From Longimicrobiales bacterium (GTDB lineage Bacteria; Gemmatimonadota; Gemmatimonadetes; Longimicrobiales; Gaopeijiaceae), in assembly GCA_965248195.1 (NCBI GenBank), contig CBDFIQ010000002.1, positions 960,001 through 1,024,000 on the forward strand: a DNA stretch of 64,000 nt, read 5' to 3'. The notes under the pieces were generated by a model. It did not search any database. It was given only the letters and a program-made list of their open reading frames with translations, and was not told where the DNA came from. A program made the position numbers and the translations under genes. Below, piece by piece: positions 19,940-34,769 of this stretch. Position 1 is the stretch's first letter, and each line of letters begins with the position of its first letter.

Positions 19940-20875
19940 TCATCGGAGACTGTTTGACTTGAGTGTCAGAGGCTCACCTGGAGCGTCCTGACGCGAATAA
20001 TACAACTCTTCGTACTCGGCCGGCGGGATATGGCCGTGGGGCTCGAAGAGGCGATGGTGATTGAACCACCAGACCCATTCGAGGGTGGCGAGCTCGATGT
20101 CTTCGAGGGTGCGCCACGGACCGCGTGGACGAATGAGCTCGGTCTTGTAGAGTCCGATGATCGTCTCGGCCAGGGCGTTGTCATACGAATCCCCCCGGCT
20201 GCCTACGGACGGCTCGATGCCTGCCAACGCCAGGCGCTCGGTGTAGCGGATAGACAGGTACTGCCCCCTGCGGTCGCTGTGATGCACCAGGCGCTTGTCT
20301 GCGTCGTCCTCGCGTTCACAGATCGCCTGCTCGAGAGCGTCGAGCGCTAAGTCACTGCGTAATGAGTTCGAGACCCGCCATCCGACGATGCGACGGCTGA
20401 ACGCATCGATCACGAACGCCACGAAGACAAACGCATGGCCCGTCCGCACGTACGTGAGGTCCGAGACCCACAGCTCGTTGGGACGTGCCGCGCTGAAGTC
20501 TCGGTTCACGAGGTCCAGCGGGCGCTCGTCGCCCTCCGCCGTGTGCGTTGTCACCTTGAAGCGCCGCCCTCGCGTAACCCCACAAAGCTCCAGTTCCTTC
20601 ATGAGCCGAGCCACCGTGCATCGAGCCACGGTGATGCCTTCCCGGTTCAGCTGCTTCCACACCTTCTTCGCCCCGTAGACCTGGAAGTTCTGCATCCACA
20701 CTCGACGGATCTCCGGCTTCAGCATCTCGTCGCGCTGAGCCCGGACCGATCGTAGCGTCGGATCTGCCTGCATCGCCTTGTGCGTGTAGTAGGTCGACGG
20801 AGCGATCGGCAGTACCTCGCAGATCGGCTCGACTCCGTACGTGGGCCGGTAATCGTCGATGAAGGCCACCATCAC
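19940..20875 (-). CDS. IS3 transposase OrfB (DDE)
   Basis: [22 protein letters not shown]. Confidence 0.93.
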
Positions 20876-21192
20876 CGAACTCGGCGGTCGAGCTCCGCCT
20901 GTGCGAAATACGCCGATGCCTTACGCAGAATCTCGTTCGCCCGCTTCAGCTCACGATTCTCACGCTCCAGCACCTTCAGTCGCTCACGCTCTTCTGTCTT
21001 GAGACCGGGCCGTTGCCCCGTGTCTCGCTCCGCTCGTCGAACCCATTTACGTAGCGTCTCCGCCGTGCACCCGATCTTCTCCGAGATCGAGCAGATCGCC
21101 GCCCACTGTGAGCTGTACTCAGGCTCGTGCTCGAAAACCATCCGAACGGCTCGCTCCCGTACCTCTGGGGAGTACTGTCCTTTCCTTTTCAT
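20872..21192 (-). CDS. IS3 transposase OrfA (HTH)
   Basis: [13 protein letters not shown]...ETLRKWV...[23 protein letters not shown]. Confidence 0.93.
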
Positions 21193-21343: not shown

Positions 21344-23805
21344 ATGATGAACCATATGAGACTAGACTTGCAAAAGATCTTTCTGCTATTGGCGCTCCAA
21401 ATGTTGCTGAGCGTTTCACCGGCCCCCACCCACGCCCAAACCCCCGCCCAACAAGAACTCCAACGCCTCACCGGCCAGCAGGTCTCCGAAGAGGAAATCC
21501 TCAACCGTCTTGCCCAATCAGGACTCTCTCGCGCCGAAGTGAGGTCGCAGCTGACTTCCATGGGCCTCAACCCGTCTATCGCCGATGCGTACTTCGATCG
21601 ACTCGAGGGTGCGGCCGACGACCCCCTGCAGCAGAACGCGGACTTCCTCCAGGCGCTCGCCCAGATGGGTCTCTTCAACGAACTCATTGGTTTTGAGCTT
21701 GGTGACACGATCGACTTTGCAAGGGATAGCTTGGCCCGCGCGGTCGAGGCCATACCGACCTCGGTCCTGCCGGTCTTCGGGCGAAGCGTCTTCGCCGGTG
21801 CCACCACTGAATTCCAGCCCGTGGTGACCGGGCCCGTGGATCCGGACTATCCGCTGGGGCCGGGAGACCAGCTGCAACTCATCCTTACGGGTGACGTCGA
21901 ACTGGCCTTACCGCTGGACGTGACGCGAGAGGGCTTCATCGTGATTCCCGATGTCGGGCAGATCTTCGTTAACGGTCTGACCCTCGGAGACCTGACCGAT
22001 CGACTCTATGCGAGGCTTGGCGCCGTGTATTCAGGCGTCCGAAGGGGGGCTGATGCGACGACGACTTTCCACGTCGCACTCGGCCGACTGAGAAGCAACC
22101 AAGTGTTTCTCGTAGGTGACGTGTCGCTCCCCGGGGCGTATCAGGTGAGCTCGGTGGCCACCGTGTTCAACGCTCTCTACAGCGCGGGTGGCCCGGGCGA
22201 GCAAGGATCGATGCGGTCGATTGAGGTCCGACGCGGGGGGCGGCTCGTGGACGAGGTGGATCTCTACGACTACCTCATTCGGGGTGACGCCTCGGACGAC
22301 ATCCGGCTCGAGCAAGGCGACCGGCTTTTTGTGCCCGTGGTCGGACCCCAAGTCGCGATCGAAGGGTTGGTGCGTAGAGCTGCCATTTACGAACTCAGGC
22401 CGGGCGAACAACTGCGGGACTTGATCGCCTTCGCCGGGGGACCGCGGCCGGAGGCATATCTCCGCAGAATCCAAGTTGATCGTATTCTGCCGGCTTCGGA
22501 ACGGACACCGGAACGGGAGCGGTTGCTCCTCGACGTGGATCTGGAGACGATGGCGGCCGACGAGGACTTCGAGCTTCTCGACGGGGACCGGGTCACGGTC
22601 TTGGGCATCGGAGACCGGCGAGACAATCAAGTGGTTGTTGAAGGGCATGTCGAGAAGCCTGGACTGTTCGAGCTGGCTCCGAACATGACGCTCGGCGACG
22701 TCATTACACGGGCGGGCTCCTGCCCGACGCTTTCAATGTGGTGGCACACCTGATTCGCTTGGAAGAGTCGGATAGCACGTACGTACTCGAGAGGGTCTCC
22801 TTGGACGCGGATGGCCAGCCGGTGCCGGACGTGGTGCTCCGCGAGATGGACCGGGTGGTTATCTACGGACGGTCCGAGCTGAGGACCGACGCATTTGTTT
22901 CTATCGGGGGTGAGATCAAGAACCCTGGCCGTTTCCCACTCAATGCTGGCATGACCGCTGAGGATCTCCTACTCGCCGCTGGAGGTTTTACGGAAACAGC
23001 GGATCCGCTTACGGCCCAACTCGTGCGTAGGCCGGGTGGCTTGCTGCTCACGGACACCGTGGCGATCAGTCAGGACATCGTATTCGACCCCTCCCTTCCG
23101 TCGGCGTTCGACCTGAGAGTCGACGGTGTGAGGCCGTGGGCCGGACCTGAGCTGGGCGAGCCGGCGAGGGAGGTCGAGCTCCGGGATGGAGACCGGGTCT
23201 TCGTCCGCCGACTCCAGGCGCTTCGGGATGAAGGCGATGTCATCCTTTCGGGCGAGGTGCTTTATCCCGGGCCTTATGCTCTCGAGCAGCGCGGTGAGAC
23301 CGTTTCCAGCCTCGTCCGCCGGGCGGGGGGCCTGACCTCGGACGCATTCTTGGAGGGCACCCGCTTGGTCCGTGACGGACTGCCCTTGGGCGTCGATCTC
23401 GACGGCGCCTTGAGCCGGTCGGGGGGAGTTGCAGACCTCCTCCTGCTCCCCGGGGACTCACTCGAGATCCCTCAATACGACGGGACGGTTCGCATCATCG
23501 GTGCCGTCGAGTTCCAGTCCCGGACTCGTTGGCGGGAGGGGATGAGCTTAGGGGACTACCTCGATCAAGCAGGCGGGGTGGTCGAGGATGGCGACCGAAA
23601 TCGGACGGTGGTGACGTATGCCAACCAGGAGCGGCAGCGTGCCAGCAAGTTTCTGTTCTTCCGGAGTGACCCCAGAATCGAGCCCGGCAGCACGATCTCG
23701 GTGCCATTCAAGGAACAAAGGGAAGCGGGTGGGATCAGTGTAGATCTGCTCATAACCCGGGTACTGTCGCTCGCCACGATCCTCGTGGCGATCAAGCAAC
23801 TCTGA
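21344..23805 (+). pseudogene. Second SLBB polysaccharide export gene, split by a 1-bp frameshift near 22715
   Basis: ORFs 21344-22753 and 22738-23805 join into a full paralog of 14196-16442 if one G is added at GGG 22714-22716. Confidence 0.8.
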
Positions 23806-25093: not shown

Positions 25094-26410
25094 ATGCACA
25101 TAGCAGTCATCGGCACCGGATACGTCGGCCTCGTCGCGGGCGCATGCCTGGCTGAGACCGGCAACGACGTGGTCTGTGCGGACATCGATTCGGACAAGAT
25201 CGCGCTTCTCGACGGCGGCCATATTCCCATCTACGAGCCGGGCCTCGAGGCGTTGGTCGAACGGAACCTCCGCTCCGGTCGGCTACGTTTCACGACCGAC
25301 ATTCCCGAGGCGGTGCGGGCCTCCAGCGTGATCTTCATCGCGGTCGGGACACCTCCGGACGAGGACGGCTCCGCCGATCTCCAGCATGTGCTCGACGCTG
25401 CGAGGACCATCGGCGCTTCGATGGACGGCGAGCGGATCGTGATCACCAAGAGCACGGTTCCGGTGGGGACGGCGGACAAGGTGCGGGACACCATCGAATC
25501 CGAGACCGAGCATCCGGTCCACGTGTGCTCGAACCCGGAGTTCCTCAAGGAGGGAGCCGCCCTCGACGACTTCATGAAGCCCGACCGAGTGGTGCTGGGC
25601 GTGGACAGCGAGTACGCGGCGGATGTGATGCGTGACCTCTACGCCCCCTTCGTCGTGAGCGGGAACCAGATCATGATCATGGACATCGCCTCGGCGGAGA
25701 TCACCAAATACGCCGCCAACGCGATGCTCGCGACCAGGATCAGCTTCATGAACGGCGTCGCGGGGCTCTGCGAGAAAACGGGAGCCGACATCAACATGGT
25801 GCGTCGCGGCATCGGCAGCGACGAGCGAATCGGGCGCACCTTTCTTTATCCGGGCGTCGGATACGGGGGATCCTGCTTTCCGAAGGACGTGAAGGCGCTC
25901 ATCCGAACCATGGACGAGTTGGGTGCGGATCCTTCGATTCTCCGGGCGGTCGACGATCTGAACGACCGCCAGAAGCGATCGCTCCTCCGCGCATTGGTGA
26001 CGCGGCTGGGAGAGGACCTGAGCGGCACGACGATCGCAGTCTGGGGGCTCGCGTTCAAGCCGAACACGGATGATATGCGCGAGGCGCCGAGCTTGGTCAC
26101 GATCGAGGGGCTACTCGAGCGGGGCGCACGCGTGGTGGCCCACGATCCAGAGGCGATGGCGGAAGCAAAGCGCCGGTTCGGTGATCGCATCGAGTTGTGC
26201 GAAGACGATTATGCCGCTCTGGAGCGGGCGAGCGCCCTGGTCATCCACACCGAGTGGAACCCATACCGGCGTCCGGATTTCGATCGTATGAAGGCCGCCA
26301 TGGCGCGGCCGCTCGTGTTCGACGGGCGCAACCTCTACGATCCCCAGCGTATGGCCGAGCTCGGCTTCGAGTATCATTCGGTGGGGCGGGCACCGGCGGG
26401 GGTCGGCTGA
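25094..26410 (+). CDS. ugd: UDP-glucose 6-dehydrogenase
   Basis: IGTGYVG, SNPEFLKEG, GYGGSCFPKD, FKPNTDD, DGRN. Confidence 0.95.
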   Translation: MHIAVIGTGYVGLVAGACLAETGNDVVCADIDSDKIALLDGGHIPIYEPGLEALVERNLRSGRLRFTTDIPEAVRASSVIFIAVGTPPDEDGSADLQHVLDAARTIGASMDGERIVITKSTVPVGTADKVRDTIESETEHPVHVCSNPEFLKEGAALDDFMKPDRVVLGVDSEYAADVMRDLYAPFVVSGNQIMIMDIASAEITKYAANAMLATRISFMNGVAGLCEKTGADINMVRRGIGSDERIGRTFLYPGVGYGGSCFPKDVKALIRTMDELGADPSILRAVDDLNDRQKRSLLRALVTRLGEDLSGTTIAVWGLAFKPNTDDMREAPSLVTIEGLLERGARVVAHDPEAMAEAKRRFGDRIELCEDDYAALERASALVIHTEWNPYRRPDFDRMKAAMARPLVFDGRNLYDPQRMAELGFEYHSVGRAPAGVG

Positions 26411-26470
26411 GCGCGGAGCAAAGGCAGAGCCGTCCCATCCGGACATCGTCTTGCCGCGAAGATTTCCTTA
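26161..26470. repeat. ~310-bp direct repeat, copy 1 (ugd 3' end plus downstream)
   Basis: Nearly identical to 28975-29284. Confidence 0.95.
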
Positions 26471-28974: not shown

Positions 28975-29284
28975 GGAAGCAAAGCGCCGGTTCGGTGATC
29001 GCATCGAGTTGTGCGAAGACGATTATGCCGCTCTGGAGGGTGCGAGCGCCCTGGTCATCCACACCGAGTGGAACCCATACCGGCGTCCGGATTTCGATCG
29101 CATGAAGGCCGCGATGGCGCAGCCGCTCGTGTTCGACGGGCGAAACCTCTACGATCCGCGGCGTATGGCCGAGCTTGGTTTCGAGTATCATTCGGTGGGG
29201 CGGGCACCTGCGGGGGTCGGCTGAGGGCGGAGCAAGGGTAGAGCCGTCCCCTCCGGACATCGTCTTGCCGCGAAGATTTCCTTA
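28975..29284 (+). pseudogene. Duplicated ugd 3' fragment (direct repeat, copy 2)
   Basis: EAKRRFGDRIELCEDD...VGRAPAGVG*, near-identical to the ugd C-terminus. Confidence 0.92.
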
Positions 29285-29408: not shown

Positions 29409-31799
29409 GTGCGGCGCGTCCTGATCACCGGCGCCGCCGGCTTCCTTGGCTCTCATCTGGCCGACCGCTTCCTGACCGAAGGGTACGAGGTCATCGGCGT
29501 CGACAACTTCGTCACGGGATCCCGGCGAAACATCGCCGCCCTCCAGAAACGCGAAGGCTTTTCGTTTCTGCGCCACGATATCTCCACGCCGCTCTACGTG
29601 GGTGCAGAGTTGGACGGCGTCCTCCACTTCGCCTCTCCGGCGAGCCCGGTGGACTACCTGGAACTGTCGATCCAAACGCTGAAGGTCGGCAGCCTGGGCA
29701 CGCACAACATGCTCGGGCTCGCTATGGCGAAGTCGGCGCGCTTCCTGCTGGCCTCGACGTCGGAGGTGTACGGGGATCCGGAGGTTCATCCGCAGACCGA
29801 GGACTACTGGGGGAACGTCAATCCGGTCGGGCTCCGGGGCGTGTACGACGAGGCCAAGCGCTTCGCCGAGGCGATGACGATGGCGTATCACCGCTACCAC
29901 GGTGTGGATACGAGGATCGTGAGGATCTTCAATAGCATCCTTGCCGACGAAACCGTGATTCTCTTCAACGACGCCACGGCCCACATCGAAGCAGTGGAGG
30001 ATTACTTCAAAGAGGCGTCCGGCAGTCCCCTGGTCGTGCGACGTCGTATGCGAGTTCCGGCGTTCAATCCGCAGACGCTTGAAATCGAGCTTCGAGAGGC
30101 CGACGCCCTCATCAAGCACCCCTCACTCGGCAAGGACGCATTTCGGATCGTCACACGGTACGGAAGACACATCCGCGTCACGGGGGACCACAGCCTCTTC
30201 CGGCGGGATTCTGATCATCTGCCCGAGGCCGTGCCGGTTCGAGACCTGAAGGTGGGCGACTACGTCGCCATTCCGGGGCGGCTCCCGGTTGTGGAGCGTG
30301 ACGTCGAGTACGTCGATTTGGCCGAGCACCTGATCCGGAAGTCCGAGTCGGACGAGAGCCTTTGGGGCTATGCCCTCGTTTTTCCAGGTGTGAGGCCGGT
30401 GCTCGAGCGGTACAAGGAGGAGATCTTCGACTTTCTCTTGGAGAGCCCGCGTTTCGAAGGAAGCCGGAGTAAGCGCAACACGGTCGGCTGCGTGTGGCGG
30501 AGCCTTAAGAAGAAAGGGAAGATCCCACTTTCGGTGATGGCTCGCCTACATCGACGGTGCGGAGTCGCCTGGCCCCAGGACGCAGTGATCCAGCCTCATG
30601 TGGGAGGTGGAACCGCGATCCCATGCCGGATTCCGCTGACCGACGATCTCTTATGGCTCCTGGGGTTGTTTGTTGCCGAAGGCTGTCACGTCGATTCGAA
30701 GGGGACCTACCGCCTGCTCCTGTCGTCGGACGACGAGTTCTTGGATCGTGCCTGCCAGATCTTCAATTCCTGCTTTGGTGTGAATGCCCGCAAGCTCGAG
30801 GCGACGATGGAGCGGTGTCCTACTCTTTACGTGGACTCGAAGGCGATCTTCTGCCTCTTCGACCGGGTGTTTCAGGTTACGGGTGCCTCGAGCGCCATCC
30901 GAATCCCTCCATGGATTTTCCAGCTTCCGCTGTCCCGGCTGAAGCACTTTTTGGAGGGGTACAGGGAGGGCGACGGTACGCACACTGGCTATCCGGAGTG
31001 CCGCGAGCTCGCGTTCAACACGGTGAGCGACGGGCTCGCGACGGACCTGAGCTACCTTCTGCTACGCTTCGGAATCGTCGCATCGGTGGGGCGCTATGAG
31101 ACGACGTTCAAGAAGCGATACGGTGACCGGAAATTCCCCTTTTGGAGGCTCACGGTCTGTGAGGTGTCGGACTTCGACATCCTCACCTGGGACCAGGGGG
31201 TAGAGCAGCGCCTGAACGCCACCCGGACAGGTGACCTGGTCTGGGCGAAAGTGCGTAAGATCGAGGCCGTAGAGGCGTCGGAGTACGTCTACGACTTCAG
31301 CGTGGAGGGCTATGAGAACTTCCTCGCCGGCAACGGGGTGTTTGCCCACAATACGTACGGACCTTCCATGCGCCCCGCCGACGGCCGGGTCGTCTCGAAC
31401 TTCATCGTTCAGGCGCTCCGGAATGAGCCGCTCACGATCTACGGGGACGGCTCGCAGACGCGTTCTTTTTGTTACGTCGAGGATGAGGTGGACGGCATCT
31501 TTCGGCTGTTCCACTCTGACCGGATCGACCCGACCAACATAGGTAATCCGGACGAGTTCACGATCTCGAAATTGGCCGAGTTGGTGATCGCCGAGACGGG
31601 TTCACGCTCGGGGATCGAGTCGTTACCGCTCCCGGCGGACGATCCCCAGGTGCGCCAGCCCGACATTTCGGTGGCTCGTGAGATTCTCGGGTGGGAGCCC
31701 GTGACGACGCTCCAGGAGGGCCTGACGAAGACGATTCCCTACTTTCGCGAACTCGTGGAAACGGAGGACGCGCGAGCCCGGCCGCTGACCTCGGAATGA
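29409..31799 (+). CDS. UDP-glucuronate decarboxylase (UDP-xylose synthase family), intein-containing
   Basis: [38 protein letters not shown]|intein|[22 protein letters not shown]. Predicted spliced product 323 aa. Confidence 0.93.
29934..31352 (+). mobile_element. Intein with LAGLIDADG homing endonuclease (473 aa)
   Basis: Block A SILADETV, block B VTGDHSLF (TxxH), LAGLIDADG motifs LLGLFVAEG and [10 protein letters not shown], block F VYDFSV, block G FAHN followed by Thr. Confidence 0.95.
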
Positions 31800-33393: not shown

Positions 33394-34769
33394 GGTCAAG
33401 TCCCGATTTGTGTGTAAAAGCGGAGGAAGCTCCTCGCCTTCGGCTAGGCTGCTTGGGCGACCTCCTGTTTCTGGAGGAGTGAGAGGTCGAGGTAACGCCG
33501 GTCGCCCCAGACGTGTGTGGTCCTGAGTGCGACGGCCGTGATGAGCCTGAGGGCGCTGGCCCGGTCCGGGAAGGCGCCGGCGGCCTTGATCCTGCGTTTG
33601 ATCTCGCCGTGCAGCCGCTCGAGGCTGTTGGTGGTACGCAGCCGGGGCCAGTGCGCCTCGGGGAACGCGTAGAACTGCGTCGCTGCCCCGAAGCCCCGCT
33701 CCAGGACCTCCACGGCCTCGGGCAGCTCCTTCTTCCAGCGTGCGCCGAACTCGCCCAGGAGCTTCTTCGCCTCGGCGAGTCCGGATGTCTGGAAGATCAC
33801 CGAGACCTCACGCGCCACGCGCTTGCGTAGGCGGTGGGGGACCCTCGCCCCCACATTACGCTGCAGATGGACCGTACACCTCTGACGGCGTGCCTCGGGC
33901 AGGAAGCGGCGGACCGCAGCTGCCAGGCCTGCGTGCTCATCGGCGATCACGAGCTCGACACCGCCGAGGCCGCGGTCCTGGAGTTGCTCGAGGAGCTCCG
34001 ACCAGCTCTGCTGCGACTCCTCAGCGCCCAGCGTGACGGCCAGGAGCCGTCGGTGACCCTCAGGGCCCACTGCATACGCCACGAGCGCACTCACGTTCTC
34101 GACTTTGCGGGCCCAGCGGGCGTCCAAGAACGTGGCGTCCAGGTACAGATAGGGGTGAGGCCCCTCGATCGGCGCACGGCGCAGCCCTTCCACGGCCTCG
34201 TCGAGCCGTTTTGCCACACGACTCACCGTCGAGCGCCCAACACGCTCGCCCATCAGCGCCTCGGTGACGTCGCCCATCTTGCGCTGTGACACGCCGCTCA
34301 CATACGCCTCGACCATCATCTCGTCGAGCTCGGGGCTCCTGCGCTGGTAGCGGCCGATCACGTCGGCCGGCGAACCGTTGTCCCGGCTCCGGGGCATGGC
34401 GACCTCGATCTGCCCCAGGCTCGTCAGCAGCCGCCTCAGGTATGTGCCGTTCCTATGGTCCTTCCGGCTTCCCACCCGCTCGAAGCGGCGTGCACCTACC
34501 ATGGCCTTCAGCTCCTCTTCCAGCACCATCTCGAGCGTCAGCCGGATCGCGCCTTGAAACAGCTCGCGCAAATCATCGCGTAGCTCGTCTTGCGTGGCCC
34601 GACCGATCTCCACAATCTCTTGCATCGGAAGCTCCTCTCCGGTTCCGAGCCTGCTCTGCAGACCCGGACTCCCGGGTTCATGTGACAGTGAACAACAACA
34701 GAGGAGCTTCCGTTTTTCTTTCCCTCCTGTCCAGCTTATCCGCTTTTACACAAATCTAGGGACACTACC
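33394..34769 (-). mobile_element. IS256-family insertion sequence, 1376 bp, 8-bp target duplication TTGGGAGC
   Basis: Imperfect IRs GGTCAAGTCCC..TGTGTAAAAGCGGA and GGTAGTGTCCC..TGTGTAAAAGCGGA; TTGGGAGC at 33386-33393 and 34770-34777. Confidence 0.95.
33444..34625 (-). CDS. IS256/Mutator transposase
   Basis: RNG, YLYLDA, VIADEHAGL, QRCTVH, RTTNSLERLHGEIKRR. Confidence 0.95.
   Translation of the reverse strand: MQEIVEIGRATQDELRDDLRELFQGAIRLTLEMVLEEELKAMVGARRFERVGSRKDHRNGTYLRRLLTSLGQIEVAMPRSRDNGSPADVIGRYQRRSPELDEMMVEAYVSGVSQRKMGDVTEALMGERVGRSTVSRVAKRLDEAVEGLRRAPIEGPHPYLYLDATFLDARWARKVENVSALVAYAVGPEGHRRLLAVTLGAEESQQSWSELLEQLQDRGLGGVELVIADEHAGLAAAVRRFLPEARRQRCTVHLQRNVGARVPHRLRKRVAREVSVIFQTSGLAEAKKLLGEFGARWKKELPEAVEVLERGFGAATQFYAFPEAHWPRLRTTNSLERLHGEIKRRIKAAGAFPDRASALRLITAVALRTTHVWGDRRYLDLSLLQKQEVAQAA

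Follow-up and report, generated by a model that had tools for sequence, protein, structure and literature searches.

The 64,000-nucleotide stretch of DNA analysed here (the window) carries, on its forward strand, a uxs gene that is predicted to encode a UDP-glucuronate decarboxylase and that lies among a wza-like gene, an SDR gene, ugd, gmd, fcl, and another SDR gene. The uxs reading frame contains an intein with a LAGLIDADG endonuclease nested inside it; the parts of the gene are as follows.

29409..31799, plus strand: uxs gene, predicted UDP-glucuronate decarboxylase (UDP-xylose synthase) precursor; ORF of 796 aa, 323 aa without the intein
29409..29933, plus strand: N-extein, 175 aa; Rossmann fold with T117, S118, E119, Y146, and K150, ending in RIFN
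29934..31352, plus strand: intein of class-1 type with no junction cysteine (Ser1 / His-Asn / Thr+1) and a nested LAGLIDADG endonuclease; 473 aa
29934..30278 (end approximate), plus strand: N-terminal Hint region; Ser1 at 29934-29936, block B TGDH at 30180-30191
30114-30119, plus strand: candidate motif NX, Lys61-His62, by pattern and position
30279..30638 (ends approximate), plus strand: extra region between Hint and LAGLIDADG core; ~120 aa, mostly helical
30639..31163 (ends approximate), plus strand: LAGLIDADG endonuclease core, by PF14528 and alignment
30654-30683, plus strand: LAGLIDADG motif 1, VAEG, with E249
30948-30977, plus strand: LAGLIDADG motif 2, EGDG, with D347
31164..31352 (start approximate), plus strand: C-terminal Hint region; block F Asp454 at 31293-31295, His472-Asn473 at 31347-31352
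31353..31796, plus strand: C-extein, 148 aa; Thr+1, most of the substrate-binding domain, and R749

The 473 residues of the insert (SILADE...VFAHN) lie in frame between RIFN and TYGP, and taking them from the 796-residue precursor leaves 323. Specifically, i) PF14890 (Intein_splicing) matches the insert at 78.2 bits against a cut-off of 35.8; ii) PF14528 (LAGLIDADG_3) matches at 40.3 bits against 22.5, covering the second LAGLIDADG motif; iii) TIGR01443 (intein_Cterm) scores 30.8 against 15.6, and TIGR01445 (intein_Nterm) 24.0, slightly below its cut-off of 24.5; iv) both exteins align gaplessly to adjoining halves of human UXS1 (E 2e-103); and v) of the best 30 loci in the family, 3 have the intein and 27 do not, the latter reading straight across the insertion site. 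We conclude that 29934-31352 is an in-frame Ser1/His-Asn/Thr+1 intein, which is predicted to excise itself. An initial annotation, made from the letters of this DNA, had recognized a full-length LAGLIDADG intein here, and its reading is confirmed by the Hint and LAGLIDADG profiles (PF14890 and PF14528, both over cut-off) and by the splicing residues: the splitting of RIFN/TYGP, Ser1, TGDH, VAEG, EGDG, VYDFSV, the terminal HN, and Thr+1 are all present as it described them, and removal does restore an enzyme of normal size. An assembly artefact is ruled out by contigs from other public runs, one of which (run X5) covers 785 nt of the insert with 9 differences, while another (run X9) spans both junctions in a single contig of 1552 nt with 70 differences.

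Several features of the neighborhood deserve mention in their own right. A direct repeat of ~310 bp, ~95% identical (26161-26470 and 28975-29284), consists of the ugd 3′ end and brackets gmd and fcl; in the congener G009, ugd directly adjoins uxs, so the GDP-fucose pair gmd/fcl likely arrived by duplication or recombination at ugd. The wza/SLBB-type export gene occupies two overlapping ORFs (21344-22753 and 22738-23805), and its G009 match is continuous across both; the split is possibly a frameshift or a sequencing error. The sugar-nucleotide cluster is flanked by a Mutator-family transposase (33444-34625, minus strand) and by an IS3-like element (19940-21192, minus strand), the latter called from its translation. 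No promoter-like site was found, and terminator-like sites occur at chance level. The only other PF14890 match in the genome (G000:C1:1152551-1152946) is an intein apparently without a LAGLIDADG core, in a gene that, judging by its RHRT motif, we take to be thyX.

The host is predicted to be a UXS-type UDP-glucuronate decarboxylase, an extended SDR. The best solved relatives of the exteins are the human UXS1 chains (PDB 2b69, 4gll; PMC3438964) at E 2e-103, with the next family at 1.9e-30, and the modelled exteins fit 2b69 at TM 0.95. Six UXS1 active-site residues are named in the available part of PMC3438964, with Ser119, Glu120, and Arg277 given as distinctive of UXS; T117, S118, E119, Y146, and K150 of the window enzyme correspond to human Thr118, Ser119, Glu120, Tyr147, and Lys151, and R749 corresponds to Arg277. 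The Thr-Ser-Glu, YxxxK, and Arg277 equivalents of the UXS group signature are thus all present, which agrees with the host enzyme proposed in the initial annotation. Five of the six residues are invariant across 113 aligned rows, and the position of T117 has Thr in 111 and Ser in 2. That the enzyme is a UDP-xylose synthase remains a prediction, and its product could possibly end at UDP-4-keto-pentose. Unlike human UXS1, which has no intein, the window precursor has one; by alignment its insertion point corresponds to the Asn176-Thr177 junction of the human enzyme, five residues ahead of the point where the NAD domain (4-181) gives way to the substrate domain, and it parts the T/S/E/Y/K residues from the Arg277 equivalent. 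A single UXS-type copy was found in this genome (G000), the next paralog being at most 37% identical over the full extein.

The anatomy of the splicing domain was read from an alignment of 113 rows, namely the window protein and 112 of its best 120 homologues, the other 8 being omitted as partial, double-intein, longer (one), or near-duplicate (one). Ser1, the block B Thr and His, the block F Asp (Asp454, within VYDFSV), the terminal Asn, and Thr+1 are invariant in 113/113 rows; the penultimate residue is His in 110 and Lys in 3. TGDH occupies intein residues 83-86, and 24 residues before His86 the pair Lys61-His62 is a candidate, by pattern and position, for motif NX, the Lys/Arg-His upstream of the block B His that PMC10189870, in the part available, describes as a signature of Ser1 inteins; the motif NX position has His in 97/113 rows, and the residue preceding it is Lys or Arg in 101/113. 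To judge from these conserved residues, Ser1 would form an oxyester, probably aided by His62 of motif NX and by His86 of block B; Thr+1 would then accept the N-extein, Asn473 would cyclise, and an O-N shift would leave the 323-aa enzyme. Activity of the enzyme would likely require splicing, because the insert leaves T/S/E/Y/K of the active site on one side and the Arg277 equivalent, with most of the substrate domain, on the other.

An alignment-based AlphaFold model has a mean pLDDT of 87.1, with low confidence at both junction loops; a single-sequence model of the intein (pLDDT 36.7) was discarded. By fold, the intein model best matches PI-PkoII (PI-TkoII) of Thermococcus kodakarensis (PDB 2cw7; E 5.9e-29, TM to target 0.62), which is also the top solved intein by sequence (E 4.7e-23), and it matches 7qss and 1dq3 as well. 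PI-PkoII, whose host protein is a DNA polymerase, is archaeal, ~23% identical to the window intein, and longer (537 aa vs 473). The extra ~120-aa region of the window intein, its least conserved part (mean identity 0.41), is likely an accessory DNA-binding domain; PI-PkoII/PI-PfuI-type inteins carry such a domain. PI-PkoII is cited as a Ser1/Ser+1(Thr+1) cis-intein in the accessible text of PMC10189870, and the window intein is likewise Ser1/Thr+1.

Both LAGLIDADG acids are strongly conserved, E249 in 112/113 rows, D347 in 110/113, and the two together in 109/113. For the endonuclease, dN/dS could be computed in 4 of 5 intein pairs, at 0.13, 0.18, 0.16, and 0.13 (the remaining pair was saturated), and these values indicate purifying selection. 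Once freed, the endonuclease would be expected to cut empty uxs alleles entering the cell, whose repair would copy the intein in; a search of its own genome for a second cleavable target found none, the best 30-base matches having 9 mismatches.

Among relatives the intein is patchy. Within the genus, uxs is present in 8 of 12 genomes and the intein in one, all 7 congeners that hold the gene having it empty, so that intein-free alleles, whose existence in relatives the initial annotation had suggested checking, are indeed present. A full-length intein match was found in 3/121 genomes of the family, and 8 of the 401 genomes in a phylum sample have a match, four in uxs and four being related inteins in gyrB; a search with the single intein alone returned 2 loci and is uninformative on breadth. 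The gyrB inteins (L037-L040) are Ser1-type LAGLIDADG inteins with 33-38% identity over the C-terminal half. Joints across exactly 1419 skipped bases occur in 4/4 DNA runs, at 85% likeness, so these joints show empty alleles in related organisms rather than polymorphism within this species. Over 30 bases, the empty sites of congeners show 5-7 differences from the flanks of the window gene. An extein tree of 58 rows, whose drawn root was set by a mis-cut row (P0041), has 7 switches between intein presence and absence, of which well-supported branches force at least 5.

Farther afield, the insertion site is a common one. A homologue search gave 2504 matches among 8000 scored candidates, and all of the best 120 of these 2504 have an intein at the RIFN/TYGP site (118 by pattern, 2 by eye), in carriers that include Rhodothermus marinus, Chloroflexota, Pyrinomonadaceae, and KSB1. 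Three of these 120 have a second intein directly before the catalytic YxxxK, and a follow-up search with a double-intein homologue found 108 further proteins, 35 with both inteins and 73 with the upstream one only. Among the 35, 12 keep both LAGLIDADG acids, 22 (including the Trichodesmium erythraeum intein) have lost one or both, and 1 is unclear; loss in these 22 is the decay stage to be expected. The upstream uxs inteins (P0046, P0052, P0063, P0123-P0230) end in GN (79 of 108), GQ (28), or AN (1), and those ending in Gln include Trichodesmium.

The Trichodesmium protein, Tery_2478 of T. erythraeum IMS101 (ABG51687.1, UniRef100_Q111Y7; COG1372+COG0451), is public under the names 'Protein splicing site' and 'UDP-glucuronate decarboxylase'. 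Its second intein lies in the same host family and at the same site (RIFN/S...HN/TYGP), has the same Ser1/His-Asn/Thr+1 residues, and can be aligned with the window intein over its whole length at 25% identity (477 columns, E 1e-41); but it is 430 aa long and has lost both LAGLIDADG acids (VARG, AGNN), whereas the window intein is 473 aa long and keeps both. Tery_2478 has a further intein directly before the catalytic YxxxK, whereas the window intein is alone and the window gene has Val, not Cys, at that upstream site. We take the InBase names of the two Tery_2478 inteins to be Ter Ndse-1 and Ter Ndse-2, and the window site to be the Ndse-2 insertion point. The allele name 'Ndse' could not be found in PMC4143802 or PMC3620165, nor in the supplements of PMC2814812, PMC7090010, and PMC10189870, and a literature search that was poor in subscription papers and did not extend to InBase found no paper describing this insertion site.

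In the part of Novikova 2016 available to us (PMC4760082), COG0451 has 8 inteins, all cyanobacterial, vs 317 in DnaB, and other sugar-nucleotide hosts are GMD/COG1089 (1), RfbB/COG1088 (2, Euryarchaeota), and UDP-GlcDH/COG1004 (10), which bears out the earlier view that sugar-nucleotide SDR hosts are uncommon. These COG0451 (WcaG) inteins are of the same broad host class as the window intein, and T. erythraeum is marked intein-positive; the rows in that part describe COG0451 as GDP-fucose synthetase, give neither insertion sites nor accessions, and do not include Gemmatimonadota among the carriers. We infer that they represent the same allele as the window intein. The novelty that the initial annotation made conditional on this site not being a common catalogued allele has thus largely fallen away, since the best 120 homologues and Tery_2478 all carry an intein there: the host class is catalogued, the site is found in a long-public reference genome, and the window intein is unremarkable except for its uncommon host protein.

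How the intein reached G000 can be approached through fourfold-degenerate sites. Between G000 and G058, which belong to different genera, 0.30 of such sites (n=228) differ in the intein, 0.51-0.66 in nine flanking segments (Fisher p 1.3e-14, sites being taken as independent), and 0.43 in the N-extein, which is somewhat closer than the other flanks. Between G000 and G042, which served as a control, the intein (0.61) diverges as much as its flanks (0.58-0.68), so the fourfold sites of the intein are not slow in themselves. Nine segments differ at 0.30-0.36 between G000 and its congener G009, and the simplest reading of these sequence comparisons is an intein transfer between the G000 and G058 lineages, of roughly the same age as the divergences within the genus. 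In the G058 intein, GC3 is 0.81, below the 0.85-0.92 of its neighbors, which hints weakly at G058 as the recipient. A long co-conversion tract was sought but not found in the exteins, where 30/42 informative sites of the N-extein and 28/37 of the C-extein follow the host tree; nor was an intein match, and with it a vector, found among 50,697 phage records.

Taken together, the evidence likely fits a homing selfish element. That the intein may still home, as the initial annotation supposed, is supported indirectly by the retention of both acids in 109/113 rows, the dN/dS of 0.13-0.18, the transfer signal, and the patchy presence, although the transfer signal comes from one genome pair and is about as old as within-genus splits, and therefore does not demonstrate homing today. 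Conserved insertion sites have been explained as a strategy of the parasite (Swithers 2009, in the portion available). We think it unlikely, on the other hand, that the intein splices without homing, as a vertical passenger lost from most relatives whose endonuclease is kept for folding or splicing. Within the Gemmatimonadota-like clade, the intein tree largely agrees with the extein tree (FastTree only, two rows skipped), so that vertical descent with recurrent losses could account for much of its past, and the 7 changes of intein state on the extein tree could likewise arise by losses alone; but both catalytic acids are kept here while the Trichodesmium-type lineage displays decay, and the excess similarity of the inteins of two genera is hard to explain without transfer. 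We therefore consider it highly probable that the precursor gene holds a self-splicing intein at the conserved RIFN/TYGP loop of a predicted UDP-xylose synthase, and that this intein is likely spreading selfishly by cutting intein-free copies.

The initial annotation had further claimed that among its SDR paralogs only this gene could splice. Within the window this stands, the paralogs having V, I, V, H, and L at the +1 position (the paralog motifs, RYANVFGP among them, were found as described); it fails for the genome as a whole, where three paralogs elsewhere in G000 have Thr at +1 and no intein. The +1 residue is therefore necessary but not sufficient. Over 30 bases, the sites of these three empty paralogs show 11-14 differences from the uxs site, vs 5-7 for the uxs alleles of congeners, and the DNA target, not the +1 residue alone, likely determines which gene the intein enters. 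SDR exteins make up 23 of the best 150 representative matches, and in eight of nine divergent SDR hosts inspected, RmlB-like and LegB/GalE-like enzymes among these eight, a related intein occupies the same register, which suggests that the loop register after RxFN is an intein hotspot common to the paralogs. The eight same-register inteins in divergent extended SDRs (P0247, P0248, P0251, P0255, P0270, P0289, P0309, and P0321) have Ser, Thr, or Cys at +1. In P0300, an RmlB-type dTDP-glucose dehydratase (TIGR01181 over cut-off), a related intein lies two residues upstream of the UXS register and precedes a Cys; the usual +1 position there would be Asn. A bolder scenario, which we regard as decidedly improbable as a whole, would have one Ser1-type intein lineage jumping among UXS, RmlB-like, and LegB/GalE-like enzymes at the post-RxFN loop hotspot, shifting by two residues where no nucleophile was available at +1, and still moving between genera, with splicing, in hosts that have one uxs copy, as a possible non-redox switch on the supply of xylose to surface glycans.

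Very improbable, in our judgment, is that the intein is kept as a conditional switch, responsive to temperature, pH, salt, or metal, which gates UDP-xylose for a surface glycan. Since no UXS-type copy other than uxs was found in the genome, the supply would depend on splicing, and the gene does lie among ugd, gmd, fcl, and wza-like genes; sensor inteins have also been proposed in general (the part of Novikova 2016 at hand, PMC4760082). Every intein in a single-copy gene, however, would exert such control; 7/7 congeners with the gene lack the intein, as do most of the best family loci; and the Ser/Thr junctions lack the cysteine that thiol-redox switches need, so that a Cys1 redox trap is unavailable, a cysteine-less intein being reported, in the accessible text of PMC10189870, to splice under oxidising conditions. 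No condition-specific sequence feature was found in the intein. The suggestion in the initial annotation that splicing gates UDP-xylose supply thus finds no positive evidence, and both the empty congeners and the missing junction cysteine speak against it, while the transfer signal lends a regulatory role no support either; conditional splicing, for which we found no evidence, would if true raise the importance of this intein greatly. That the gene is dead, or the insert an assembly chimera, has a negligible probability, for although the RNA run contained only 0.06 of the words, the frame is open, the active-site residues are intact, every part is under purifying selection, the same junctions recur in 120/120 best homologues, and a contig from another study bridges both of them.

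As an intein free of junction cysteines, though with ten internal ones, the window intein is a possible start for splicing tools that work without reducing agents (PMC10189870). For the biology of inteins more generally, the intein described here shows that, with uncultured lineages included, inteins can be common in proteins other than those of replication and nucleotide metabolism. It is also a clear instance of an intein that has apparently passed laterally between two bacterial genera while close relatives have empty alleles, and this makes homing directly testable.
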